Part shown: positions 1 to 11,007 of the stretch, piece after piece
Layout: each line of letters opens with the position of its first letter
Numbering within the stretch: the stretch's first letter is position 1
From: a virus
Lineage: Duplodnaviria; Heunggongvirae; Uroviricota; Caudoviricetes
IMG/VR virus record: IMGVR_UViG_3300029577_000220
Location: 1 to 11,007 of that record
Direction: 5' to 3' (one strand)
Length of the DNA: 11,007 nt
Translations under genes and position numbers: made by a program
The notes under the pieces: model-generated
Seen by the model: the letters and a program-made list of their open reading frames with translations, nothing else
The model's database searches: none
What the model was told of the DNA's origin: nothing

Positions 1-1505
1 TGGTCTCTCATCCTTCTCCACTGCTGTACAAAATATAGTCTTAGCGTGGGATAATTTCCGTTTTCCAAGCGGACCCCTTTTTGTCCTCCATTCGCCCTGC
101 AAACAGGGTAGCCAGTTGGCCGATAATCAGAAGGTGAGACGCTCATAAGCTCTTTGCTGATGGTGGCCGACAGTGCGTCTTCGGTCATTTCACCGATTCC
201 GTCTTCCATCTCGTCGAGCGCCTTTAGCGCCTCCTCCAGAGTCATTTCATCCGGCGCAGGAACAAAGCCAGACTCACTGTCTTTGGGCACTTCCGCACCA
301 TCTTTATTTTCTTTGCCTTCGACGTCTTCTTCAGTTTCCCCACGATCAGTATCGGAGTCCTCACCGCCATCACCATCGATGCCAGAGCCATAACCATCAG
401 AATCATCGGTATCTTCGCGAATACCATCGCCAGGTCTTGGAGCGCCAGTGCCATTGCTGCCATCATCATCGGTGTCAGAGTCACTTGATTTCATGCCGAT
501 AGCATCGGATTCTGGGGTGTCTCCTGACTCTTCGTGGCCTGCTTCTGTATATTTACTTTCTGTATCACTAATATCTTTAACGTGTGTAGGTAAGTCCTTA
601 TCTAATGAATCAGGCAAATCGGAATCCCCAGAATCTTCCTCTTCTGATGCATCATCTTCTCGTTCTTCCTTGTCATCGCCTTCGCCTTTGGCAGGCTTAG
701 ATGCAGAGTCACCATGAGACGGCTCGTCACCTGATTCTGGCGTTTCCTCGGACTCGTCTTTGCTCTCCGACGGCTTTCTGGCAGATGATTTAAGTTCTGG
801 TAATTTGCCCTCTGGCTTGTCTTTCATATCCTGCATGATTTGGGCTATAGCAGCAGCGACCTTCACGCAATCCTCAGTGTTCGACATATTGCGAACGGCC
901 ACGTCTATACCATGCTCCTTTAGTAAGGCTACCGGCCTCTCGATAAGGCGCCAGTGTTCTTCCATAAAATCGATGAAGGGGCTTTGTCCATCCCAGGCGC
1001 GGACGACCGGGCAAAGGAAGAATTTCAAAAACAATTCACGCTGGTCTCCGTGACAGGCTAAAACCGCTTCTGGTACTTTATTCCTGAAGTATTTGTCGAT
1101 AACCAGACTCTGTGTTGCAAGTAAATTACGCCGGGTTCCGTTAAAGACCTGCCCCATTCTGCGTTCAATAAAAACGTCTTCCAGCGCATTCCAAAGCCCC
1201 GTAGACGGAGCCTTTCCTCTTTCGCGCATCTGCATTGCGACTTTCGGTTCAGTAAAGAGAATATGGGCCACCTCATGGTCGAGAAAACCACGCACTGCGT
1301 TCATGAGGGTTGGCGACGCGTCGTCCGGTATAGATGGGATGTTTACCAGCACTGGTTCGCCGCGCCGGTTATAGCGGACATATGCTTCATTGCCTCGTTC
1401 TGCAACAGGTATTTGTTTACCTGAAAGCATCGCTACAACTCGTTTTACACAGTCGCGAAAATCCTGCACCTCTTTCAGTACAGCTTTGGTGGTTTTTTTG
1501 GACAT
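1..1505 (-). CDS. Large protein with N-terminal globular region followed by a ~200-aa D/E/S/G-rich acidic low-complexity linker; architecture resembles CobT-like (cobaltochelatase CobT / vWA-associated) proteins. Start ATG at 1503-1505; 3' end lies beyond the window start, so ~501 codons are in the window.
   Basis: Minus-strand frame set by ATG 1503-1505 is open to position 3 (translated by hand at both ends: MSKKTTKAVLKEVQDFRDCVKRVVAMLSGKQIPVAERGNEAY ... SPSDYRPTGYPVCRANGGQKGVRLENGNYPTLRLYFVQQWRRMRD). AAGGGA Shine-Dalgarno-like sequence ~8 nt upstream of the ATG. The Ser-rich plus-strand ORFs in the track (154..717) are antisense shadows of the acidic repeat region. Family assignment is from architecture only. 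Confidence 0.6.
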   Translation of the reverse strand, partial: MSKKTTKAVLKEVQDFRDCVKRVVAMLSGKQIPVAERGNEAYVRYNRRGEPVLVNIPSIPDDASPTLMNAVRGFLDHEVAHILFTEPKVAMQMRERGKAPSTGLWNALEDVFIERRMGQVFNGTRRNLLATQSLVIDKYFRNKVPEAVLACHGDQRELFLKFFLCPVVRAWDGQSPFIDFMEEHWRLIERPVALLKEHGIDVAVRNMSNTEDCVKVAAAIAQIMQDMKDKPEGKLPELKSSARKPSESKDESEETPESGDEPSHGDSASKPAKGEGDDKEEREDDASEEEDSGDSDLPDSLDKDLPTHVKDISDTESKYTEAGHEESGDTPESDAIGMKSSDSDTDDDGSNGTGAPRPGDGIREDTDDSDGYGSGIDGDGGEDSDTDRGETEEDVEGKENKDGAEVPKDSESGFVPAPDEMTLEEALKALDEMEDGIGEMTEDALSATISKELMSVSPSDYRPTGYPVCRANGGQKGVRLENGNYPTLRLYFVQQWRRMRD

Positions 1506-1558
1506 TAGAATTCCCTTGTTGTTAAAACAATTTGTTTTCTGATGTGCGTAATTTATCA

Positions 1559-1591
1559 CTGTACGAACAGGCATCTAATCTGTTCGTACAG
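1559..1591. promoter_or_regulatory. Perfect 12-bp inverted repeat CTGTACGAACAG-N9-CTGTTCGTACAG in the 5' leader/promoter region of the 1..1505 gene; candidate operator or leader stem-loop.
   Basis: Arms 1559-1570 and 1580-1591 are exact reverse complements; located 54 bp upstream of the start codon at 1505. Confidence 0.4.
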
Positions 1592-1605
1592 GCGCTAGAG
1601 AGGAT

Positions 1606-1618
1606 GGGAGGGGGGGGG
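1606..1618. repeat. Homopolymeric G tract (GGGAG followed by 8 G) between the stop of the 1619..1831 ORF and the start of the 1..1505 gene.
   Basis: Direct reading of 1601-1620: aggatgggag ggggggggtt. Confidence 0.6.
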
Positions 1619-1831
1619 TTAAATTGTGCGGACGGCTACTGAACCGCAGCCGGTATTGATGAGAGTGAAGCACTTGCCCTTTAGCTCAAAGATGTATGCG
1701 GTTGCGTCTTTCATGTCAAGTAACAAAGACTTTGTTGGCAGTTCAGTGAGTATGGCTGCTGCCCCATCATCGTCAATTGAAATCGTATGTCCGACCTCAA
1801 GGGCGATCAAATTAGAAGTTATTTTTTTCAT
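1619..1831 (-). CDS. Hypothetical small protein (70 aa), divergent from the HTH regulator gene.
   Basis: ATG at 1829-1831 (minus), weak GGATGA SD-like sequence upstream; shares a 247-bp AT-rich divergent intergenic region with the 2088..2477 gene. No recognisable domain. Confidence 0.3.
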   Translation of the reverse strand: MKKITSNLIALEVGHTISIDDDGAAAILTELPTKSLLLDMKDATAYIFELKGKCFTLINTGCGSVAVRTI

Positions 1832-2087
1832 TTCATATCATCCAACTGAACACGTAAATACCTTGCAATACTACTACCTATTGTATCAATACGGAATACT
1901 TATGTATCAAATACAACTTAGTTTTAAGTTCTTAAATGAGTTATTTTTTAGATAGTTGTCTATTAATGAAGCCTTTTGCGGTCAGTAAACCTATGTAAAA
2001 AAATAGATAAGTCTTTACAACACTAACCTTTGATGTAATATCAGTAAGCACTTACCAAATAAAATCAAAACACGCAGGTTGATAATT

Positions 2088-2477
2088 ATGGCTACCAACG
2101 AAACAAAAGAAGCTAAAGTAAGTCGCTACGCTGCTTACATTGACGCTTTAATCGCGATTTCTCCGAAAAGCCAGGCGACCATCGCGAAAGAAGCAGGCTA
2201 TAAAAACCCTAACAATCTTTCACTTATCAAGAGCGGCAAAATCCCGCTTCCGATCGACAAGGTCAGAGCGTTGGCTAAAGCATTGGATGCCGATTCGGTC
2301 CGATTGATGCTAATGGTGCTGGAAGAGCGTCATCCAGAGCTGTTAGCGTTTTTTCGCGACGAAGGCACAGCCCCTCTGACTAAAGATGAAAAACTAGTTC
2401 TGGAAGCCTTCCGTCGACGTTTCGGTGACCAACGTGGTGCGTCGGAGCGGGTTGTTGAGGCAATCAAGTCGCTATGA
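2088..2477 (+). CDS. XRE/Cro-CI-type helix-turn-helix transcriptional regulator (129 aa from ATG 2088; the track ORF begins at an upstream in-frame TTG at 2079).
   Basis: HTH_3-like segment SQATIAKEAGYKNPNNLSLIKSGKIPLPIDKVRALAKALDAD; AGGT ~9 nt upstream of ATG 2088; AT-rich upstream region; convergent with the integrase and overlapping its 3' end by 6 bp. Confidence 0.65.
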   Translation: MATNETKEAKVSRYAAYIDALIAISPKSQATIAKEAGYKNPNNLSLIKSGKIPLPIDKVRALAKALDADSVRLMLMVLEERHPELLAFFRDEGTAPLTKDEKLVLEAFRRRFGDQRGASERVVEAIKSL

Positions 2478-3575
2478 GAAATTTACACGGATTAGCTCAG
2501 TAGCGAGTCGATCTCCCTTGAACTTATGATCTATCTCCTCTAAATCCTGTTTCTCTACGATTGATGCGATGTACGCCGAAAAACTGTTTAAGGCGTCTCG
2601 CATCTCGTCTATATAATCGTGTCGATCGTATACTCGATCTATCCCCTCAAGACTGTGGTTCATAATTTTGCGGGATACCTCCTGACTTATGCCTAACGCG
2701 GGGAAGTAACTACGCGCAGTACGACGCAAATCTCGGGGAGTAAATGGCTCAAGCTCCATCAACTCTGGACGTTCTAAAATCCTTCTCAACGCCTGTGATA
2801 TGGCCACCTTAGACATTGGCACATCCTCACCCTGTTTCTTGTTTGAAGGAACAAGCCACTGGCTGCCTTTTCCGTATTTGATCAGCTCCTCAACACATTT
2901 GCGCATTAGCGGGCTTAATGGTAACGAGTGCTGGCGAGCCGATTTATTCCTCGTTCCTTGATTCCATAAATTATATTCGAGGTTGAATTCTGATCTTTTA
3001 GCTCGGAGCACTTCATCTGGTCGTCTGGCCGCTACAAGGCATAATCTGGCCGCCCACTTTGTACCCTCACATACGTTGAAGTAGTCCCATACATTCCAAA
3101 AGACCCAGACCTCTGCGTCGGTCAGTTTGCGCTCGCGCGGCGTGGGCTTCGCGCCACCGGCTACTCTGTTAAGCGACATATCGTTCAATGGGGATGTATC
3201 AATTAAGCCCTGAAATGCACACCAACTGAGAAACTGCTTCATCAGCGAGAACACACGTCTGCCCTGGACGATCTTGCCCTCAAGTATTAATGGGTTCACC
3301 AGCTGGTTGACTAAAACCCTACTAATATCACTTACTTTTACTTCACAGATATGCGGCATTACATGTATCAAAATACAATGAACAGCTATTTCAGGTCGAC
3401 GTCTCGTTATCAGCAAAGATAAGCGAGTGAATAACATGAATGCGGAAGAAAACGACATATCACCGTCGAAATTGGTGGTCGACACTGCTGACAAACCGGA
3501 AGCGCGTTCGAGATACTCGATGGCTTCTCTAGAGGTGTTTTCTGCTGCGCGTGCTTTATCAAAAGTGTTTTTCAT
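2472..3575 (-). CDS. int: Tyrosine recombinase/integrase, P4-like family, lacking the N-terminal arm-binding (DUF4102-type) domain; possibly a truncated remnant.
   Basis: C-terminal catalytic region FTPRDLRRTARSYFPALGISQEVSRKIMNHSLEGIDRVYDRHDYID matches the integrase box II / R..Y architecture; core-binding region ISRVLVNQLVNPLILEGKIVQGRRVFSLMKQFLSWCAFQGLID matches the P4-integrase core-binding pattern. The region upstream of 3575 (3576-3874) is AT-rich and non-coding, so no arm-binding domain is encoded. Confidence 0.85.
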   Translation of the reverse strand: MKNTFDKARAAENTSREAIEYLERASGLSAVSTTNFDGDMSFSSAFMLFTRLSLLITRRRPEIAVHCILIHVMPHICEVKVSDISRVLVNQLVNPLILEGKIVQGRRVFSLMKQFLSWCAFQGLIDTSPLNDMSLNRVAGGAKPTPRERKLTDAEVWVFWNVWDYFNVCEGTKWAARLCLVAARRPDEVLRAKRSEFNLEYNLWNQGTRNKSARQHSLPLSPLMRKCVEELIKYGKGSQWLVPSNKKQGEDVPMSKVAISQALRRILERPELMELEPFTPRDLRRTARSYFPALGISQEVSRKIMNHSLEGIDRVYDRHDYIDEMRDALNSFSAYIASIVEKQDLEEIDHKFKGDRLATELIRVNFS

Positions 3576-3672
3576 AGTCCACTCACTGAGTGAAGCCTGT
3601 TTTTACTGTATTTATAAACAGTATGTTAGGCCTAAGTTTTGTATGATCAACAGTAAAATAGACTGTTTTTGA

Positions 3673-3707
3673 AAATGATTCCATACCTTACAAGTATGGA
3701 ATCATTT
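3673..3707. promoter_or_regulatory. Perfect 14-bp inverted repeat AAATGATTCCATAC-N7-GTATGGAATCATTT in the integrase upstream region; candidate operator/recombinase-binding site.
   Basis: Arms 3673-3686 and 3694-3707 are exact reverse complements; the arm core GTATGGAATCAT recurs at 5326-5337 and 6346-6357. Confidence 0.45.
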
Positions 3708-3874
3708 ATATAGCTTACGTAAATTCTGAATAAATTATGTAGACAAACCATCTTAAACGCTAAATAGTAAAAAGCGCCTAATAACGCCAACTTTGGAATG
3801 CCATCTGAGCCAGATTGATGAGAATGATTTGTTAGAAGAAAAAGAATGATGAAGAAGATGACGATCGCTAAAGT

Positions 3875-4291
3875 TCAGCTAGAATGGAAACCTTCTGCGA
3901 CTTCAGCGAAGTAGCTGAGCAACCTAGTATCTCTTGCTGGCATACGATCGTGAGCTGGAGTGACTAGCCCCATCAGCAAAAAACGCCCGCTATCCCACAT
4001 GTGCTCGGTATAAACGAGATAGTGGTTTGAGGTTCGGTTGTAGTTCTCTTGCCTTGCGTTCCAGGTAAGCTGGAAATGCAAATTGACGTGAATATGCTGG
4101 ACATTAGCATCAACGGCGAACGGCGGGAAGTCAAATGGCGCATCTCGTCCAAGAAGATTAGATGGTGCGCCAGTTGATTTGTAAGTAATGAACTCGGATT
4201 TGAGCTGACTTTCTAGGTCAGGGTAAACGACAAAAGTGGGCTGAAAAAAATCATCCCACGTAACTTGACTGTATTCAGCCGTTAATGCCAT
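3875..4291 (-). CDS. YafO-family toxin (ribosome-dependent mRNA interferase type), 138 aa.
   Basis: Block-wise resemblance to E. coli YafO recalled from memory: FITYKSTGAPSNLLGRDAPFDF vs FISYKRDGVLPDIFGRDALYDD; VQHIHV vs VAHIHL; RTSNHYLVYTE vs RTNDEAHLVYCQ; FLLMGLVTPAHDRMPARD vs WLLIAILKPEPHKLARD; AEGF vs AEAF. Start ATG 4289-4291 overlaps the upstream gene's last codons by 10 nt. Confidence 0.7.
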   Translation of the reverse strand: MALTAEYSQVTWDDFFQPTFVVYPDLESQLKSEFITYKSTGAPSNLLGRDAPFDFPPFAVDANVQHIHVNLHFQLTWNARQENYNRTSNHYLVYTEHMWDSGRFLLMGLVTPAHDRMPARDTRLLSYFAEVAEGFHSS

Positions 4292-4830
4292 TTAGCCGCA
4301 GCCTTGTTGCCAGTCTCTAATAGATGGTTCATGGCTAAAAGGTTGACACCAGAGTCACGCACTACAGAAGTGCGTGTAATCTGATCAATCAGATTGAGAT
4401 AGTTTTTGGTCGCAATACTGACCATTTTAATAGCCTTAAAAAACGCAAACTCAACAGTGTTTTTTTCGTAAGACATGATGACGTCTTTTTCAGGTAACAT
4501 CAAAACAAAAGATTCTGCGATACCGGCTACATGAATAGTTTGATTCTTAATTTCTTCCGCTACTTTGATAGCAGCAAAGAAGTCAGTGTCAGCATAATGA
4601 GCAAGTTCAGCGCGGCTTGAACGCAGTTCTTTAGCCAATTCATTGAGAGCAGCTGTAAGATCACTGATGTCGGTTTTGTTGACTCTAGCGCCCATCTCAT
4701 AAACCCGTTCTACAATCGTAGGCTGACACGCAACCGCTTTGGGTTGCGGCTGGATACTGGCAAGAACCAGTGCCACTGCTGCCTGCAAATGCTGGATTTT
4801 AAATTTCACGATAGACTCCATAATCGTCAT
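4282..4830 (-). CDS. Hypothetical 182-aa protein translationally coupled to the YafO-like toxin; putative cognate antitoxin/partner, not YafN/RelB-like.
   Basis: ORF with ATG at 4828-4830; stop TAA 4282-4284 overlaps the start of the YafO-like gene; no recognisable RelB/DinJ/YafN-like sequence and roughly twice the size of YafN. Confidence 0.6.
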   Translation of the reverse strand: MTIMESIVKFKIQHLQAAVALVLASIQPQPKAVACQPTIVERVYEMGARVNKTDISDLTAALNELAKELRSSRAELAHYADTDFFAAIKVAEEIKNQTIHVAGIAESFVLMLPEKDVIMSYEKNTVEFAFFKAIKMVSIATKNYLNLIDQITRTSVVRDSGVNLLAMNHLLETGNKAAAKWH

Positions 4831-4908
4831 TTCTCGACGAAGCGTAGCATTCTACTACTGAACTTAACTATAAGCTAAAAAAAGTTGGTTGCATATGCGA
4901 CTTGATAG

Positions 4909-4929
4909 CAAAAAGGGGCCGAAGCCCCT
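4909..4929 (-). terminator. Rho-independent terminator downstream of tRNA-Asn (minus-strand sense GGGGC-UUCG-GCCCC followed by UUUUU).
   Basis: Plus strand 4910-4932 aaaaaggggccgaagcccctttg: 5-bp GC stem, UUCG tetraloop on the minus strand, T-run on the minus strand (A-run 4910-4914 on plus). Confidence 0.55.
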
Positions 4930-5005
4930 TTGGATTTTGCGCTGAAAAAAGTGTTGCTACGATGCTTAGAAGCAATGGTTAAAAAACGTCTGCCGTGTCT
5001 ATCAC

Positions 5006-5080
5006 AGCGCTGAACGGTCTGGCGACATTTGCGGAGTCTTTCGTTCGGACGGTGGTGGCGAATCCAAACCGTTCAGCGCT
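5006..5080. other. Long hairpin: 13-bp perfect inverted repeat (AGCGCTGAACGGT / ACCGTTCAGCGCT) enclosing 49 nt, immediately 3' of the tRNA; possible structured RNA or degenerate tRNA-like element.
   Basis: Arms 5006-5018 and 5068-5080 are exact reverse complements; the enclosed sequence does not fold as a cloverleaf by hand. Confidence 0.35.
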
Positions 5081-5084
5081 ATGT

Positions 5085-5159
5085 TGGCGATGGTGGGTGG
5101 ACTCGAACCACCGACCAGTTGATTAACAGTCAACCGCTCTACCACTGAGCTACACCATC
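5085..5159 (-). tRNA. tRNA-Asn (anticodon GUU), 75 nt with encoded CCA.
   Basis: Minus-strand sequence GATGGTGTAGCTCAGTGGTAGAGCGGTTGACTGTTAATCAACTGGTCGGTGGTTCGAGTCCACCCACCATCGCCA folds by hand: acceptor GATGGTG/CACCATC, D-stem GCTC/GAGC, anticodon stem GTTGA/TCAAC with loop CTGTTAA, T-stem GGTGG/CCACC with loop TTCGAGT, discriminator G, CCA. Confidence 0.85.
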
Positions 5160-5408
5160 ATTTTCGCGGCGGTACTAGCTTATGGACAACCAGGCAGCCA
5201 GAAACTTTCCCGTAACTTGCACTTTACGTTAGTGCCAGACGAGGTATGTGGCTCGCTCATATGAGCGAAGATCTCGAATCTTTCTCGGTGGTTGATTGCC
5301 GTTAGATTCTTCGATCTTATTGGATGTATGGAATCATACATGTTGTGAAGCCAGGGGCAATAAAGGCAACAATGTTTTCACTAGAGGGTTAATTAATCCT
5401 GCTTTCAC

Positions 5409-5518
5409 AACGTTGAGATCACTGAACCGATTAATGTTCAACCCAACATATTGATCAGTCGCTACAGCTATGTGGAATCGCCTGTATGATTTTAAGAAAA
5501 ATCAGTGATCTCAACGTT
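5409..5518. repeat. 17-bp perfect inverted repeat (AACGTTGAGATCACTGA ... TCAGTGATCTCAACGTT) separated by 76 bp in the non-coding region between the tRNA and the small-gene cluster; candidate structured ncRNA, origin-like element or MITE-like remnant.
   Basis: Arms 5409-5425 and 5502-5518 are exact reverse complements; no convincing ORF in 5160-5900. Confidence 0.4.
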
Positions 5519-5883
5519 ATGTGCTGACTAACCAAGTCAGCCGGGTTACGTCGCCGCTTTTAACCCAAGTATAAACGACATAAGTAATGGAAATGACGTA
5601 ACAGAATGGACGGTCAGCTGAAACCGGGATGGGTGAATGGAATGATGAAACCAACCGCCCATTCTGTTACTTCATTGAATGGGGCATGGATGGTGCAATA
5701 TGCCCTATTCTGCGTTCTGCAATCACACTCGCTCAGTGTGTCCCATTTTGGTGACGAGGCTGGAAACTGACCTCGCTGGTGTTTGGCTTCTTAGGCTACT
5801 GCCAGGTATGCATCTTCGTTTGCAGTTATATTTAACGTTCAAACAGTCGCATCTCAACGAAAACAAAGTGATCTTATACATAT

Positions 5884-5909
5884 TAGATAAGTAAGTAAAT
5901 ACTTATCTA
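5884..5909. promoter_or_regulatory. Palindromic site TAGATAAGTA-AGTAAA-TACTTATCTA overlapping the stop of the 5903..6208 gene; shares the 11-mer ATAAGTAAGTA with sites at 10811-10821 and 8582-8592 (reverse complement).
   Basis: 10-bp arms 5884-5893 and 5900-5909 are reverse complements; the 11-mer recurs at two other loci, both 5' of minus-strand genes. Confidence 0.4.
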
Positions 5910-6208
5910 TCTGTGATGCGTTTAGTTGCTATCTTTTTGATCAGGCTCCCCTTTTGTTCCGAAGTTCTCATGATGATGGCGGTAAAACGCTTCGCTTGAA
6001 TAGTGATAGTTTCGTTTTCCTTGAGTTCGCCGTAATGCGTCTCTAACAGGGACCCCAGACGCCACAGACCGTCGTCTATGCGTTTATGGCTGGCGAATCT
6101 GATCAGCAGTAGCTTTACGATTAACTGACCAATGTAAAAGGCAAATCCGAAGCCGGCCGCCACAAGGTAGGTTGCCAGCCACCAGTCGAAGGAAGTCAAA
6201 TTGCTCAT
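5903..6208 (-). CDS. Hypothetical small membrane protein (101 aa).
   Basis: ORF with ATG 6206-6208; hydrophobic segment WWLATYLVAAGFGFAFYIGQLIVKLLLI; start overlaps the stop of the upstream 50-aa ORF (ATGA). Confidence 0.5.
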   Translation of the reverse strand: MSNLTSFDWWLATYLVAAGFGFAFYIGQLIVKLLLIRFASHKRIDDGLWRLGSLLETHYGELKENETITIQAKRFTAIIMRTSEQKGSLIKKIATKRITDR

Positions 6209-6357
6209 TTTCGCACTCCCGTCTCGTGAACAACCCGATACACACGCTTACCGACACGAAGTGTTTTGGTTTGCAGTTCCTGCTGGACCAGGGCGCGGCA
6301 GATTGCGAGGCCGAGGCCCACGCCACCAGTAAAAGATAAAATGATGTATGGAATCAT
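6205..6357 (-). CDS. Hypothetical 50-aa protein with a hydrophobic N-terminus (MIPYIILSFTGGVGLGLAICRALVQQ...); not in the supplied ORF track (below the size cutoff).
   Basis: Hand translation: ATG at 6355-6357 overlaps the TGA of the 6357..6569 gene (TGATG), and its own TGA (6205-6207) overlaps the ATG of the 5903..6208 gene (ATGA). Confidence 0.3.
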   Translation of the reverse strand: MIPYIILSFTGGVGLGLAICRALVQQELQTKTLRVGKRVYRVVHETGVRK

Positions 6358-6569
6358 CAGTGCGCCCCCGCCTCAGTCAATTGCTGCAACAACAAATAAC
6401 CTTTTTCAGTCAGTTGATAGTTCTCAATACATCCCTTTGGAGAAACGTTGGCGACAAGATTCATGCGCTCCAGTTTGGCTCTGGTCTTCGGCTTCCAGTT
6501 GGCGTAGAACTCCTTCCACTTGCTGATTTCACGCAGGGTTTCCTTCTCTCGTTTACTTAACATGCTCAT
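6357..6569 (-). CDS. Hypothetical small soluble protein (70 aa), Lys/Glu-rich, possibly DNA-binding.
   Basis: ORF with ATG 6567-6569; embedded in the overlapping gene chain downstream of the ligase. Confidence 0.45.
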   Translation of the reverse strand: MSMLSKREKETLREISKWKEFYANWKPKTRAKLERMNLVANVSPKGCIENYQLTEKGYLLLQQLTEAGAH

Positions 6570-6729
6570 CCTTAATCTCCTTCAGTGTGTCCGTGATATC
6601 TACTATGCGATAAATACGACCTCGCCTTTGCATGACACCGGCTTTTACGTAATCGTGGATACAGCTGGACATAACCAGACTTCCGATAACAATGCCGACG
6701 ACTAAAAATACAAACATCCAGCCGAGCAT
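6553..6729 (-). CDS. Hypothetical 58-aa protein with an N-terminal transmembrane helix (MLGWMFVFLVVGIVIGSLVM...); not in the supplied ORF track.
   Basis: Hand translation: ATG at 6727-6729 shares one base with the ligase stop codon (TGATG); TAA at 6553-6555 lies inside the start of the next gene. Confidence 0.3.
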   Translation of the reverse strand: MLGWMFVFLVVGIVIGSLVMSSCIHDYVKAGVMQRRGRIYRIVDITDTLKEIKDEHVK

Positions 6730-8051
6730 CATTCTTTATCTCCAATACGATCTTCGGTATCTCGAAGACATTTAGGCCACTTCAGACGTGGATGACGCAA
6801 GCTACCATCTGGCGTTTTCTCATGGCAGTGAACCTCAACGATGCGTCCACGATACTTCTCCTGATTGTTCCAGATTTCATCCAGGTATTTATGCTTGATA
6901 CCGCTGGCACGAACGATGACGCCGTTCTCCAGACGAATCACTATCTTGCCTAGCGTATGCGCAAATCCAGAATCCGGATCGCCAGGCTCGAAGTCGATGA
7001 TTTCACCGTCTTCTGAATCCTCGTCTTTCAGCTTCCACCAGCTGCGGGTACGTTTGAACTCGTAAACTGAATCCGGATCTTTGCCCATCTCTCCCTCTTC
7101 ATTCTCGTCCAGTCGCTTCATGAAACGTTCGATGAAATCTTCGTGGCTATGGATGATGTAGAACGGATGAAGGTGGATATCTTGCGCATAATCTTCCACG
7201 CAAGTGTTGCGGAACAACGCCACCAGCATAGCCAGGCGCTCTTTCAGCTTCATACCGGTCTTCAGGTACTCTTTGCTTTTTGCTTGAGCACGCCACTCCG
7301 GTAAGAAGAAATCGAAAATGTGGTAAACGGCACCAATGGCTTTCACGTTCTTCTTACGAAGCGCCGACACTGACTGGTTGAATGTACCTGCAGTGCCCTC
7401 TCCATCGAAGAAGATGTGATTGAAGCCGGAGAGTCTGCCCCGCTCCAGCATGGCTGGTTTAAGGTGATCGAGTGACGTAATCGGATTGCCGGTGCGCGTC
7501 AGGAAATTGACCTCACCCTCGTCCACGATGACTTCGCAGATAACCCGGAGACCATCGAGTTTGAGACTGCCGATCATTGGCCACTTGGCCTTTGGATTTG
7601 GTTTAAATGGGTATTTGTCGCCTTTCTCCTTGTACGGAGACGCCAGCTGTACCTCAAACTTCGGAATTGGGTTTTCGAACACCTTGTTGCACAGGCTGAT
7701 GCCGACACCGGCTTTCGGATCTTTCAGCAGGAAGCGACGAAACACGTCCTGCCCGTCAGCGCACATCGAGGCAACGAGTGATTCGACAGCAGCAATAGCG
7801 ATGTTCCCGGTCAGTTCGCGCGCTGCCAGCTTCTCCAGCAGATCTACTACCTTCTGGTCGCTGGGTACGGAAGTATCGAGTGGCTCGGCCACTTTGTACT
7901 TCTTCACACCGAATCGAATGAATGGATTGAGCATTAGCGAGACCATGCTCTGTTCAAATTCATCCAGATTGGCCAGCGCCTCTTTCTTGGCGTTGGTTCC
8001 CATCGTTTTAATAGCATCCAGCTTGTGCTTTAGGGCGATCAGTTTTTCCAT
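6729..8051 (-). CDS. ATP-dependent DNA ligase, T7-like (phage-type), 440 aa, with an ~80-aa N-terminal extension.
   Basis: Nucleotidyltransferase motif I KLDGLR; motif III FFDGEG; motifs IV-V EGEMGKDPDSVYEFKRTRSWWKLK (compare T7 ligase EGLIIKDP...SGWWKMK from memory); C-terminal motif VI TPDGSLRHPRL...RD. GGAGG Shine-Dalgarno 9 nt upstream of the ATG at 8051. Confidence 0.9.
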   Translation of the reverse strand: MEKLIALKHKLDAIKTMGTNAKKEALANLDEFEQSMVSLMLNPFIRFGVKKYKVAEPLDTSVPSDQKVVDLLEKLAARELTGNIAIAAVESLVASMCADGQDVFRRFLLKDPKAGVGISLCNKVFENPIPKFEVQLASPYKEKGDKYPFKPNPKAKWPMIGSLKLDGLRVICEVIVDEGEVNFLTRTGNPITSLDHLKPAMLERGRLSGFNHIFFDGEGTAGTFNQSVSALRKKNVKAIGAVYHIFDFFLPEWRAQAKSKEYLKTGMKLKERLAMLVALFRNTCVEDYAQDIHLHPFYIIHSHEDFIERFMKRLDENEEGEMGKDPDSVYEFKRTRSWWKLKDEDSEDGEIIDFEPGDPDSGFAHTLGKIVIRLENGVIVRASGIKHKYLDEIWNNQEKYRGRIVEVHCHEKTPDGSLRHPRLKWPKCLRDTEDRIGDKE

Positions 8052-8085
8052 TAGTGTTTAACCTCCATCGGTCGCTCGGGAGTTT

Positions 8086-8574
8086 TCATGTGTTTTCTTT
8101 GGTTGCTTCTTCAATGAGTGCCGCGTACACGTCAGTGACCGGCGCCAGTGAATCGGTGGGCTTGGTTTCGGATTTAGCAGGTTCTGTTTTCTTCGTGCGA
8201 TGAATAAGACTGTCAATTGTCGCGGTGTTTCGCTTCCGGGGGAGCGTTCTGGCATGGTCGTTTTGCTCTTCCACTTCTTTGATAAGTGAAGACATATCGA
8301 TGAAGTAGAGCTGTTCGTCTTTGCGGATCTCTTCGACCATCATTTTCAGTGCCTGACATTTACCAGCAGCAATAGCCGCAGCGCAGGACTGGAACGATGT
8401 AGCCGGGAGACGTTTTTCTTTATAGGCGAGGATCGTGTGTTGGCAGACTGTATAGCTGCAATGAGCCTCATGGCCGTTGAGCTTCACTTCCGGGCAGCGC
8501 AGCGAATAACCGTTGTTTCCGGAGATAGACGGGATTTTCGACAAATCTGTTCTTGTGGACATGCTTCTAACCAT
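8086..8574 (-). CDS. Hypothetical Cys/His-rich protein (162 aa), putative zinc-binding, immediately upstream of and co-oriented with the DNA ligase.
   Basis: ORF with ATG 8572-8574; segment CPEVKLNGHEAHCSYTVCQHT plus CAAAIAAGKC; 34-bp gap to the ligase start. Confidence 0.55.
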   Translation of the reverse strand: MVRSMSTRTDLSKIPSISGNNGYSLRCPEVKLNGHEAHCSYTVCQHTILAYKEKRLPATSFQSCAAAIAAGKCQALKMMVEEIRKDEQLYFIDMSSLIKEVEEQNDHARTLPRKRNTATIDSLIHRTKKTEPAKSETKPTDSLAPVTDVYAALIEEATKENT

Positions 8575-8599
8575 AATCTTGTACTTACTTATTAATCGC

Positions 8600-8627
8600 A
8601 GTTTAAAGAAGCCCCACGAGGGGGCTA
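8600..8627 (-). terminator. Candidate rho-independent terminator after the IS-interrupted gene (minus-strand AGCCCC-CUCGU-GGGGCU followed by a U-rich tail).
   Basis: Plus strand 8610-8626 agccccacgagggggct; the A-rich stretch on plus (8601-8609) gives UCUUUAAA on the minus strand. Confidence 0.4.
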
Positions 8628-8643
8628 AATGTTTTATCGAGGC

Positions 8644-9099
8644 TTACCAGGTCGCCCAGCCAGTCATTTTGTCCTGAGCAGCTTCGAACCGGTATGGGTC
8701 CAGTAAATCGTTGGTACGATGAACGGCGTAGGATTTGGCTTCTTGTTTAATCATGGGTAATTCGTTGGCCAGACGAGCCACTTGCCCTGCAAAACTGGCG
8801 AGTACTCCGTCACATGCCTGACCCACGTCGACAATGATGCGCACCAGGTCTAAGTCGCTGCGGCACATATCGCAGATAATGCCGTATTCCACCTCACGAA
8901 TGCGCTCAACGGCTTTTTTGATATCGCCACTGACCACCAATTCCAGCAAACCAGGTGGAGTTGTCAGATCTGTTACGCGCTCGGTAACTTCAGACTGTTC
9001 GACAATACTCAGGAACGCCGCGATGGACGGGTCATCCGCCACACCAGCTCTGACTTTGAGCGTGCGAAGAGTTGCGTCGACAATATCCTCAAACCGTTC
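8644..9099 (-). pseudogene. 3' portion (151 codons) of a ~270-codon gene interrupted by IS629; product unknown.
   Basis: The track ORF 8644..9042 (GTG start) extends in frame, with no stop, up to the IS boundary at 9099 (ERFEDIVDATLRTLKVRAGV ADDPSIAAF...). The frame is continuous with the fragment at 10410..10769 once the IS and one TTC copy are removed. Confidence 0.7.
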
Positions 9100-9153
9100 T
9101 GAACCGCCCCGGAAATCCTGGAGACTAAACTCCCTGAGAAAGAGGTAAACAGG

Positions 9154-9480
9154 ATGACTAAAAATACTCGTTTTTCCCCCGAAGTCCGTCAGCGGGCGAT
9201 TCGTATGGTTCTGGAAAGTCAGGATGAATATGACTCACAGTGGGCGGCAATTTGTTCCATTGCCCCAAAGATTGGCTGTACGCCGGAGACTCTGCGTGTC
9301 TGGGTTCGCCAGCATGAGCGGGATACCGGGGGCGGTGATGGTGGGCTCACCAGCGCTGAACGTCAGCGTCTGAAAGAGCTGGAACGTGAAAATCGTGAAC
9401 TGCGCCGCAGTAACGATATCCTTCGCCAGGCTTCCGCTTATTTTGCGAAGGCGGAGTTCGACCGCCTCTGGAAAAAATGA
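9154..9480 (+). CDS. IS629 transposase OrfA (HTH and leucine-zipper part), 108 aa.
   Basis: [23 protein letters not shown]... is typical of IS629/IS1203-group OrfA; ends ...LWKK* at the A6 run 9472-9477, the expected -1 frameshift window. Confidence 0.9.
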
Positions 9481-10367
9481 TGCCACTGCTGGATAAGCTG
9501 CGTGAGCAGTACGGGGTCGGACCGGTATGCAGCGAACTGCATATTGCCCCGTCAACGTATTACCATTGTCAGCAACAGCGACATCATCCGGATAAACGCA
9601 GTGCCCGTGCGCAGCACGACGACTGGCTGAAGAGAGAGATACAGCGCGTATACGATGAAAATCATCAGGTGTACGGTGTGCGTAAAGTCTGGCGTCAGTT
9701 GTTACGGGAAGGAATCAGGGTGGCCAGATGTACAGTGGCACGTCTCATGGCGGTTATGGGACTTGCCGGTGTTCTCCGGGGTAAAAAGGTCCGTACGACC
9801 ATCAGCCGGAAAGCCGTTGCCGCAGGCGACCGCGTAAACCGTCAGTTCGTGGCAGAACGACCTGACCAGCTGTGGGTGGCTGATTTTACTTACGTCAGCA
9901 CATGGCAGGGCTTCGTCTATGTGGCGTTTATCATTGATGTGTTTGCCGGATACATCGTGGGGTGGCGGGTCTCATCGTCTATGGAAACGACATTCGTGCT
10001 GGATGCGCTGGAGCAGGCGTTGTGGGCCCGTCGTCCGTCTGGCACCATCCATCACAGCGATAAAGGCTCTCAGTATGTGTCACTGGCCTATACGGAGCGA
10101 CTAAAAGAAGCCGGATTACTGGCATCAACAGGGAGTACAGGCGACTCGTATGACAACGCGATGGCTGAGAGCATCAATGGTCTTTACAAAGCGGAGGTAA
10201 TACACCGTAAGAGCTGGAAAAACCGTGCAGAAGTGGAACTGGCCACACTAACGTGGGTGGACTGGTATAACAATCGACGATTGCTGGGAAGGCTGGGCCA
10301 TACTCCTCCGGCAGAAGCAGAAAAAGCTTATTATGCTTCCATCGGAAACGATGATCTGGCAGCCTGA
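9477..10367 (+). CDS. IS629 transposase OrfB (DDE/rve catalytic domain), 296 aa; expressed as an OrfAB fusion by -1 frameshifting.
   Basis: rve-type motifs [58 protein letters not shown]; overlaps orfA by 4 nt in the -1 frame. Confidence 0.9.
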
Positions 10368-10409
10368 GTTCACAGATAAAACACTCTCCAGGAAACCCGG
10401 GGCGGTTCA

Positions 10410-10769
10410 TTCACCTTCATCGCACACAGTCTGATTGGTGTAGACAGTCTGATTAGTGTAGACAATGCGACCGTCGTACCATGCACCGATACTCACTTCG
10501 ACCGTTGCGTCTTTCATCTCGCGAGAGAACGCCACAAGTGCCGCGCGTTTCTGCTTAACACCTGACAACTCCGGGGACTCTCCAAAACGAACCCAGACCT
10601 GCATGTATTTCGAGCCTTCCGAAAGAGGTACGGTGCTCACGGACGTGGCGATATGCTCCAGTGCAGTTTGGATCGCCTCGTCGATAATCTTCTGGCGCTC
10701 TTCTGTATCAATTTCTACGCCGGATTTGTCGATGATGTCGCAGACTAACTTCTGAAATTCTTCTTTCAT
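10410..10769 (-). pseudogene. 5' portion (120 codons) of the IS629-interrupted gene; its promoter and RBS are intact.
   Basis: ATG at 10767-10769 with AGGAG 7 nt upstream; the ORF runs into the IS629 right end, where it meets a stop supplied by the IS terminal TGA (10407-10409). Confidence 0.7.
10428..10463. repeat. 18-bp tandem duplication (AGTCTGATTGGTGTAGAC / AGTCTGATTAGTGTAGAC) inside the interrupted gene, encoding VYTNQT twice.
   Basis: Units 10428-10445 and 10446-10463 differ at one position; in frame. Confidence 0.6.
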
Positions 10770-10809
10770 AGCAACTCCTGACTAACAGATGAAAATATTC
10801 TTTCAGAAA

Positions 10810-10831
10810 AATAAGTAAGTATCTACTTATT
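10810..10831. promoter_or_regulatory. Palindromic site AATAAGTA-AGTATC-TACTTATT in the promoter region of the interrupted gene; same motif family as 5884-5909.
   Basis: 8-bp arms are reverse complements; contains the 11-mer ATAAGTAAGTA; ~40 bp upstream of the start at 10769. Confidence 0.4.
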
Positions 10832-10861
10832 ATATCGGGCACAATAGTCTGCTATACGAAG

Positions 10862-11007
10862 AAGCCAGGCGTAAAAACTACTCGGATGCACATCCAGCAC
10901 CCGACAAAGCAGTCGGACAGGCCAGCAATAGGTGTTGCATTGACAGATTGAATCTACAACGGCTTTTTTTAATATGTCCCGTTCGTCGGTAACCCGCTTC
11001 AGCTCTT
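10862..11007 (-). mobile_element. Fragment of a second, different IS3-family element (OrfA C-terminus to OrfB N-terminus junction region); continues beyond the right window edge; inner boundary uncertain (between ~10833 and ~10865).
   Basis: Minus-strand translation ELKRVTDERDILKKAVVDSICQCNTYCWPVRLLCRVLDVHPSSFYAW shows the OrfA-type ...ILKKA and the OrfB-type LCRVL.V..S.(Y/F).W motif (compare IS3 MCRVLRVARSGWYTW from memory); A7 run at 10964-10970 lies at the expected frameshift window. Not IS629 (sequence differs from the in-window copy). Confidence 0.45.

Follow-up and report, generated by a model that had tools for sequence, protein, structure and literature searches.

An 11,007-nucleotide (nt) stretch of tailed-phage DNA (IMG/VR record IMGVR_UViG_3300029577_000220, positions 1–11,007; hereafter the window) carries two overlapping minus-strand genes that probably form a type II-like toxin–antitoxin (TA) module, composed of a YafO-family RNase and a cognate neutraliser of a new family. 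To our knowledge, YafO is among the least understood of the Escherichia coli toxin families, and its sole characterised antitoxin is the Phd-type protein YafN. In the window, the toxin gene is preceded by a gene for a 175-amino-acid (aa) protein, referred to below as the partner, which is probably the toxin's antitoxin. The partner family, and hence YafO pairing of this type, is undescribed. Since the Prokaryotic Genome Annotation Pipeline (PGAP) already assigns the toxin half to the YafO family, only the partner, and so the pairing, is new. The initial annotation, made by a model from the sequence alone, had proposed an undescribed system; that proposal stands for the partner family and the pairing and falls for the toxin.

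In the mechanism that we propose, a single promoter would give rise to a bicistronic mRNA. Its second gene would encode a RelE-fold endoribonuclease of the YafO family that arrests growth by mRNA cleavage, an activity established for K-12 YafO. Its first gene, translationally linked to the second by a 10-nt overlap, would supply an all-helical protein that is the obligate companion of this YafO branch and most probably neutralises the toxin by direct binding via its conserved C-terminal ∼55 residues. The module may act as an addiction or stabilisation device for the phage-plasmid that carries it, and possibly as an abortive-infection device. The initial annotation had offered the pair as a candidate for either TA or abortive infection; the pair is probably of the TA type, while an anti-phage role is plausible from its location and has no direct support, and a search of both proteins against PADLOC-DB 2.0 at E ≤ 1 gave zero hits.

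A divergent YafO-family toxin

The 138-aa product of the second gene matches the Pfam family YafO_toxin (PF13957; E = 1.1e-19, 70.8 bits against a cutoff of 25, profile positions 2–100 of 101), as the initial annotation had predicted, and also matches phrog_1651. It is 27% identical to E. coli K-12 YafO, with which it has G-R-D, H-I-H, L-V-Y, and P-x-H motifs in common. F34, G48, D50, H68, L92, Y94, H114, and A132 are invariant, and H66 nearly so, in an alignment of 12 sequences that comprises K-12 YafO plus six other YafO branches. Because these YafO residues are retained, the toxin looks catalytically intact. An AlphaFold2 (AF2) model (pLDDT 79, pTM 0.80) has a beta-alpha-alpha-beta-beta-beta-alpha layout and shows a RelE-like alpha/beta fold. 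By analogy with the K-12 enzyme, the protein is predicted to be a RelE-fold endoribonuclease that would arrest growth through mRNA cleavage. The K-12 yafNO pair is an experimentally validated TA system in which YafO cleaves translated mRNA and YafN neutralises it (PMC2814082); a strict ribosome dependence of K-12 YafO has been questioned (PMC8546651).

An undescribed family of helical partners

No family in Pfam, NCBIfam, PADLOC, or PHROGs matches the partner above threshold. Its weak Pfam matches (LepB_N, RHH_1, DUF7517, and DUF6907) all lie below their cutoffs. BLAST against K-12 YafN (E ≤ 100) produced no alignment, Pfam and NCBIfam gave no Phd/YefM-type match, and a search of the PDB found no sequence relatives. 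The initial claim that the upstream protein is non-canonical and unrelated to YafN, RelB, and DinJ is borne out by these searches. Structure prediction, which the initial annotation had called for, gave an all-alpha AF2 model (pLDDT 80, pTM 0.68); there was no antitoxin among the structural neighbours of the partner. In the numbering of the 182-aa maximal open reading frame (ORF), the model consists of an N-terminal helix (residues 12–26), three long helices (52–82, 84–110, and 126–155), and a C-terminal helix (164–181), with a Pro-rich, low-confidence linker after the first helix and a weaker loop before the last.

The family has very few members. A word-indexed search retrieved 39 partner proteins, all from Enterobacterales, all annotated as 'hypothetical', and all devoid of a Pfam domain of their own; P0036, a chimeric hit among the 39, carries PF01527. 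An exhaustive profile search found just 24 cluster representatives among 1.84 billion. The partner occurs in 258 of 72,556 PLSDB plasmids (from Enterobacter, E. coli, Klebsiella, Citrobacter, and Salmonella), in 74 of 5,426 complete E. coli genomes, and in several temperate phages. Q143, A159, L163, and G167 are invariant in alignment A2, and the C-terminal end bears a recurrent aromatic-His/Leu element (WH, FH, IH). Because its C-terminal ∼55 residues are the sole part of the partner conserved across the wider superfamily described below, and because they adjoin the toxin gene, the C-terminus may be the toxin-binding element, as it is in most type II antitoxins.

The two genes travel and diverge together

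The same gene pair lies beside MCP/dak genes in Erwinia, exbBD in Pseudescherichia, an MFS transporter gene in Leclercia, and on an unassigned contig. It also lies at a syntenic position in Klebsiella and other phage-plasmids and on conjugative Enterobacter plasmids, so that the pair is found in at least five unrelated contexts. A close-alignment search for further loci returned six near-identical viral contigs. Nucleotide similarity between the window and the chromosomal copies extends from about position 4897 to about 3881, taking in both genes and ∼90 bp upstream of them, and therefore leaves no room for a third gene. The pair thus appears to be a self-contained mobile unit of ∼1.0 kb (about 3881–4897), in keeping with the initial description of a conserved, tightly linked pair on a phage-like element. 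A terminator-like hairpin downstream of the toxin falls outside the chromosomally shared region, which ends at ∼3881, and is therefore a matter of local context and not part of the mobile unit.

Pairwise dN/dS ratios are 0.08–0.26 for the partner and 0.05–0.13 for the toxin, with synonymous sites near saturation; both genes are real and under purifying selection. In Klebsiella the toxin retains 73% identity and the partner 48%, and at a further locus (L012; homologous loci are numbered with the prefix L) the figures are 47% and 29%. Partner and toxin thus co-diverge, the partner faster, a pattern typical of antitoxin and toxin. Very divergent partners, at 20–31% identity, were also found (e.g., P0085). 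Flanking DNA could be read only for P0085, whose gene is followed at once by a YafO gene that it overlaps by 10 nt; the contig of P0088 ends ahead of the downstream gene.

The linkage was also surveyed in a spread sample of 60 of the 258 partner-bearing plasmid records. The partner match abuts a gene annotated as a YafO toxin in 53 of the 60; three contain two unnamed adjacent genes, three a toxin-deletion variant, and one a fragment only. Two kinds of decay were examined. In NZ_CP122497 and one viral contig, the toxin and the partner's final 13 codons are gone through a 436-bp deletion (window 3888–4323). pSB89A has a frameshifted partner together with a toxin that has lost its first 19 codons and carries H68Y at the invariant His. 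Among these very few decayed copies, an intact toxin was not seen without an intact partner, which favours a TA pair.

Related partners upstream of other phage YafO genes

Other phage YafO genes, in HK639, YMC11/02/R656, PhiR40_1, and pJN2-26, are likewise preceded by an unannotated gene, encoding 179–205 aa. The pair lies between tail genes in HK639, beside the repressor in Pseudomonas phage YMC11/02/R656, near the left end of the genome record and upstream of ea22 in PhiR40_1, and at the syntenic position in the Klebsiella phage-plasmid pJN2-26. The upstream proteins belong to phrog_8416 (HK639 gp17 and PhiR40_1), phrog_22162 (YMC11/02/R656 gp093), and phrog_13546 (pJN2-26_0104), all three labelled 'unknown function'. 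Pairwise BLAST between the families is non-significant or marginal, and they are distinct. At the profile level, the window-partner family aligns to the HK639_17 family with an hhalign probability of 96.2% (E = 2.2e-9, 112 columns), with the C-terminal ∼55 residues as the core, and the family member P0085 matches phrog_8416 over nearly its full length (E = 6.9e-4). These comparisons indicate that the HK639_17 (phrog_8416) family is homologous to the partner family of the window, with which it has the C-terminal motif in common. Homology between the window partner and pJN2-26_0104 is not established.

The PhiR40_1 record was the sole one seen to name a member of this superfamily as an antitoxin. 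Its depositor labelled the 179-aa protein (L021:222–761) 'YafM antitoxin', with no evidence attached to the label; the protein, a phrog_8416 member, shares 29% identity with HK639 gp17 (E = 5e-14).

Cassette architecture and translation start

The features of the cassette and two of its neighbours are collected in Table 1. Both ORFs lie where the initial annotation had placed them, with the overlap that it reported. An identical 10-nt overlap is found at six homologous loci (L002, L003, L007, L008, L009, and L014), and the more distant pairs have gaps of 8–16 nt between partner and toxin.

Table 1. Features of the YafO cassette and flanking elements in the window
Feature	Position	Strand	Remarks
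YafO-family toxin gene	3875–4291	−	138 aa; second gene
Partner gene	4282–4809	−	175 aa from GTG 4809 (most likely start); maximal ORF to ATG 4830, 182 aa
Gene overlap, ATGGCATTAA	4282–4291	−	10 nt; toxin start codon inside the partner's last codons
Candidate −10 hexamer, TAGAAT	4849–4854	−	Conserved aligned position; putative promoter
Leader stem-loop, TCGTC-N7-GACGA	4824–4840	−	Between −10 box and Shine-Dalgarno
Shine-Dalgarno, GGAG	4816–4819	−	6 nt upstream of GTG 4809; kept in homologous loci
Signal-peptide-like segment, MKFK / IQHLQAAVALVLASI / QPQPKAVA↓C	4729–4809	−	Partner residues 1–27
Conserved C-terminal region of partner	4285–4455	−	Residues ∼119–175; candidate toxin-binding part
Terminator-like hairpin plus T-run	3773–3788	−	Consensus scan; downstream of toxin
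tRNA-Asn	5085–5159	−	
Tyrosine recombinase	2472–3575	−	Pfam search

The partner most likely starts at GTG 4809, and its length is then 175 aa; the 182 aa given initially are those of the maximal ORF. This start is favoured because a GGAG lies 6 nt upstream of it, because the starts of homologs align there, because PGAP also calls it, and because the start first proposed, ATG 4830, falls inside a conserved 5′-leader hairpin. The aligned codon is GTG in the window, L007, and L008, TTG in L002, and ATG in L009, in each case with a GGAG-type Shine-Dalgarno 6–7 nt upstream, and most partner homologs begin MKFKIQ. An internal cytoplasmic isoform starting at Met38 was considered and rejected, since it would lack a convincing Shine-Dalgarno and the Met is not kept in distant members.

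Upstream of the start, TAGAAT or TAAAAT occupies the same aligned position in seven loci, unrelated contexts included; an eighth, L014, has only a weak TATAAC farther upstream. We infer that the window's TAGAAT acts as the −10 element of the cassette promoter; the −35 element is poor. A hairpin is predicted at the leader position in every lineage, with the stems TCGTC/GACGA, CCCCC/GGGGG, ACGTTAAG/CTTAACGT, and GGCC/GGCC-type, and could be either an RNA 5′ stem-loop or a palindromic operator.

A signal-like N-terminus

By a home-made heuristic calibrated on 125 annotated K-12 proteins, the N-terminus of the partner looks like a Sec signal peptide, a feature that the initial annotation had overlooked. 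Its layout is tripartite, MKFK / (IQH)LQAAVALVLASI / VLA↓S or AVA↓C, with an n-region charge of +2, a best 10-mer Kyte-Doolittle score of 2.69, AXA-type sites after A17 and A27, and a best 19-mer score of 1.22, below the transmembrane range. All 12 members of the partner family that were examined pass the signal-like criteria despite their sequence divergence (down to 20–30% overall identity). Across the family, 10-mer scores are 2.2–2.7, n-region charges +1 to +3, and hydrophobic cores 10–15 residues long, with AXA-type sites; distant members have unrelated sequence in the same physico-chemical layout, e.g., MKESITKITMAVTLALAGMSHNACA↓D and MKFGKLASLIAAVLAFAGA↓H. YMC11/02/R656 gp093 also shows these features. 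In the K-12 benchmark, 7 of the 125 proteins pass: the exported SecM, YacC, PqiC, GfcD, GfcB, and DsbC, plus the borderline cytoplasmic protein Etp. The false-positive rate is therefore ∼1 per ∼90 cytoplasmic proteins (∼99% specific), and each of the 21 K-12 proteins whose N-terminal 10-mer scores 2.3 or higher belongs to the envelope.

The segment is also constrained. Its synonymous divergence (pS) is 0.63 and its pN/pS ratio 0.22, versus 0.34 for the rest of the partner, and LQAAVALV is invariant. Because synonymous change is plentiful, the constraint must act at the protein level, and nucleotide-level constraint can be set aside. Three other accounts of the segment were rejected. A lipoprotein signal fails the lipobox pattern [LVI][ASTVI][GAS]C (PROSITE PS51257 logic, applied by hand), with K at −4 in K-A-V-A-C; distant members carry H, N, or E at −3 to −1, and some members have R or S in place of the Cys. 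Tat export finds no twin-arginine motif on inspection of any n-region. A single-pass membrane anchor would need more than a hydrophobic run of 10–15 residues with a best 19-mer score below 1.65.

Alternative readings of the partner

Several observations weigh against a TA module of the ordinary kind. The toxin scores 52.1 bits against NF007377, the NCBIfam equivalog of K-12 YafO, below its cutoff of 153, and is therefore a divergent family member and not an ortholog. No DNA-binding domain (helix-turn-helix (HTH), ribbon-helix-helix (RHH), AbrB, or Phd) was found on the partner above threshold in Pfam or NCBIfam, so that classical autoregulation is unsupported. Above all, an exported protein cannot be a conventional cytoplasmic antitoxin; the conserved signal-like N-terminus therefore needs explanation, and the TA model does not account for it. 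Its signal-like character is itself uneven, being weak or absent in the HK639_17, PhiR40_1, and pJN2-26 branches, which fail the criteria. One explanation, which we regard as possible but doubtful, is that the partner is an antitoxin and a Sec substrate at once, so that export instead of proteolysis gives it lability, or couples the toxin to the Sec system and the envelope. Only freshly synthesised pre-protein would then hold the toxin, with the gene overlap probably allowing capture during translation, and partner that is free or has dissociated would leave irreversibly by export, in place of degradation by Lon or Clp; should the phage-plasmid be lost, or an insult such as phage infection alter Sec or the proton-motive force, the amount of free toxin would shift. 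Consistent with this are the uniformity of the signal-like segment over the 12 family members and gp093, with no transmembrane-length stretch in any, the choice of exported proteins plus one borderline case by the benchmark, the confinement of its highest 10-mer scores to envelope proteins, the Pro-rich linker that follows the first helix in the AF2 model, and the lack of an evident protease-type degron or DNA-binding domain. However, conservation is higher in the hydrophobic segment than elsewhere in the protein, which is atypical of signal peptides and points to a particular role in binding or structure; the sister families HK639_17, PhiR40_1, and pJN2-26_0104 fail the signal criteria; AF2 confidence in the helix is moderate (pLDDT 74–77); and a search of the literature found no precedent for an exported antitoxin. 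The conserved helix, moderately confident in the AF2 model, could alternatively be a dimerisation or core helix of a cytoplasmic, DNA-binding antitoxin that represses its own operon from the leader inverted repeat, as in classical type II modules. This we think unlikely. An inverted repeat does occur at the same place in every lineage, and the partner has a weak RHH match (residues 57–76, E = 0.071); but that match is below threshold (13.5 versus 20.5 bits) and lies within a long helix of the model, the stems vary in sequence and length between close lineages, as is more typical of an RNA hairpin, and within the K-12 sample a lysine-preceded uninterrupted run such as AAVALVLASI occurs only in envelope proteins.

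It is quite improbable that the partner is no antitoxin at all but an independent secreted or periplasmic phage moron, for instance an envelope or superinfection-exclusion factor, tied to the toxin by no more than a common operon; the toxin would then be held in check by something else, such as an RNA, by a YafN-like antitoxin of the host, or by its own intrinsically low activity. Such a protein would fit the signal-like N-terminus and the lack of similarity to antitoxin families in sequence or among structural neighbours, and related pairs do sit at classic moron positions, among the tail genes of HK639 and at the repressor of YMC11/02/R656. Against it, the pair moves only as a whole, with just ∼90 bp of upstream DNA and no third gene, through otherwise unrelated hosts and contexts, and its two members co-diverge; the only part of the partner conserved across the superfamily is the C-terminus, which adjoins the toxin gene; and neither of the two degraded cassettes examined retains an intact toxin minus the partner. 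An RNA antitoxin, for its part, would have to do without tandem repeats or other obvious features of such RNAs, because the partner ORF fills the upstream space. The reading of the partner as a direct, protein neutraliser of the toxin is the one that best accommodates the linkage, the co-divergence, and the conserved C-terminus, and a functional signal-like N-terminus would add to it a previously undescribed route to antitoxin lability or toxin-envelope coupling: if the export reading is true, the pair has a new way to set antitoxin lifetime, with envelope or secretion status tied directly to an mRNA interferase.

Genomic context

The 1.6 kb surrounding the pair are 99.6–99.9% identical to E. 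coli plasmids of ∼105–115 kb, on which PGAP calls a 'hypothetical protein' and then a 'type II toxin-antitoxin system YafO family toxin'; the toxin label appears in dozens of records. Because 3.9 kb of backbone to the right of tRNA-Asn match Salmonella phage SSU5 at 91.8% identity, the window is part of an SSU5-like phage-plasmid of E. coli. In SSU5 (L034; compared with window 1619–5085) a CobT-like gene directly adjoins tRNA-Asn, and a tblastn search of SSU5 for YafO found none, so the cassette is absent there. The ∼3.5-kb block that the window has at this point, consisting of the partner–YafO pair, a lox-like site, the recombinase, a 129-aa HTH protein, and a 70-aa phrog_2627 protein, is therefore accessory content at a variable spot of the phage-plasmid.

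The initial annotation had placed the cassette between a tRNA and an integrase. Both elements are present, as a tRNA-Asn and a tyrosine recombinase, but the recombinase looks more like a lox-type enzyme with a target site of its own than like evidence for an integrated island. A tRNA-targeted integrated island was in fact rejected: no direct repeat of the tRNA 3′ end was found within 1500–5400, and the recombinase is instead accompanied by a lox-like site. The 367-aa enzyme aligns to P4-type integrase models from residue 71 onward only and therefore lacks the usual N-terminal arm-binding domain. About 100 nt upstream of its gene, at window 3673–3707, is a perfect 14-nt inverted repeat with a 7-nt spacer (AAATGATTCCATAC-N7-GTATGGAATCATTT). 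The core of the repeat, TGATTCCATAC-N7-GTATGGAATCA, is kept upstream of the recombinase in four divergent phage-plasmid lineages (counterparts at L009:4731–4759, L014:3263–3297, and L020:3553–3583) and was not found in the two chromosomal cassette loci in which it was looked for (L002 and L003). The repeat has the architecture of a lox/FRT/dif-type core site; the recombinase itself probably acts on it, to resolve dimers or to integrate, and the site would then stand outside the TA module. Convergent with the recombinase gene, with a 6-nt 3′ overlap, the HTH protein gene (2088–2477, plus strand) encodes a phrog_8 transcriptional regulator (E = 1e-10) with a weak PADLOC match to capH, a CBASS-associated regulator (E = 0.0029).

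On the other side of the cassette, a 20-nt inverted repeat (90% complementary, 41-nt loop; 5003–5083) lies immediately 3′ of tRNA-Asn on the same strand and is followed by a strong GC hairpin plus T-run, GGGGC-TTCG-GCCCC-TTTTT, at about 4910–4928. An Rfam search of the repeat gave no match; it could serve in processing or termination, or be a small RNA. Two hydrophobic ORFs on the minus strand, one of 59 aa (6553–6732; best 10-mer Kyte-Doolittle score 3.48, 19-mer 2.57) and one of 101 aa (5903–6208; 19-mer 1.84), are probably small membrane proteins of the SSU5 backbone. Farther along, an IS3-family insertion sequence (9154–10367; orfA 9154–9480, orfB 9477–10367) with an Rfam ALIL frameshifting pseudoknot (9435–9551, 121 bits) interrupts a hypothetical gene. 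The intact version, in plasmid p1585m1_B, encodes 270 aa (WP_023135650), and the window retains only a 132-aa piece (8644–9042).

In Klebsiella and related phage-plasmids, the genes upstream of the pair (L009:291–2166 and L014:311–1753) encode colicin M-like, Acb2/Tad1-hairpin, Sequestin-domain, PhoH, and glutaredoxin proteins. Acb2/Tad1-hairpin proteins are a family of anti-CBASS or anti-Thoeris sponges, and the neighbourhood looks like a hotspot for conflict and counter-defence genes. In many Klebsiella SSU5-like phage-plasmids, the syntenic site, flanked by the glutaredoxin and recombinase genes, holds another YafO pair (L020:1871–2908, pJN2-26); its toxin is ∼30% identical to the window's, and its 205-aa partner (phrog_13546) is without a signal-like N-terminus. 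This arrangement suggests that lineages of YafO pairs have repeatedly replaced one another at the same phage-plasmid site.

Comparison with known systems

The partner defines a second type of YafO partner, a helical protein of ∼175–190 aa that no searched library annotates and that, on mobile elements, seems to be the one usually present. Because SSU5-like phage-plasmids and Enterobacter plasmids carry resistance genes and matter clinically, an uncharacterised addiction or defence module on them is of practical interest. In an earlier survey, YafO toxins were found to pair with Phd-type antitoxins or with unclassified partners, and the YafO superfamily was found on chromosomes only, with none on plasmids or phages (Leplae et al., 2011; PMC3141249). 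The NetFlax survey does not mention YafO, and our literature search found no paper that describes the partner or ties YafO to SSU5 or to a signal peptide on its partner.

The closest characterised relative is K-12 YafN–YafO, which resembles the window's pair in its PF13957 toxin, RelE-like fold, partner-first gene order, and tight linkage. YafN, however, is a Phd/YefM-type protein of 97 aa, unrelated to the 175-aa, all-alpha partner; K-12 YafO is without an N-terminal strand and helix that are present in the window's toxin; and K-12 yafNO belongs to the dinB/SOS operon, whereas the window's pair is outside one, on phage-plasmids and plasmids. The pairs of other phages likewise have a 179–205-aa protein immediately upstream of the YafO-family gene, but with gaps of 8–16 nt in place of the 10-nt overlap and with an N-terminal hydrophobic segment that is weaker in the HK639/PhiR40 branch and absent in pJN2-26_0104. 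The antitoxins of the RelE-superfamily systems HigBA, YefM-YoeB, RelBE, and DinJ-YafQ are cytoplasmic, DNA-binding proteins (HTH, RHH, or Phd) of 70–100 aa with a disordered C-terminus that wraps the toxin; the window's partner is instead a 175-aa helical bundle with a signal-like N-terminus and no DNA-binding domain. A link between a RelE-fold toxin and secretion is known from the toxin–antitoxin–chaperone (TAC) systems, such as HigB1-HigA1-SecB-like chaperone of Mycobacterium tuberculosis, in which an additional hydrophobic segment, prone to aggregation, makes the stability of the antitoxin depend on a component of the secretion-chaperone machinery. In TAC systems, this segment is a C-terminal extension, not an export signal, and is served by a third gene, for the SecB-like chaperone, whereas the window's pair has two genes only and a segment that is N-terminal, with signal-peptide architecture.

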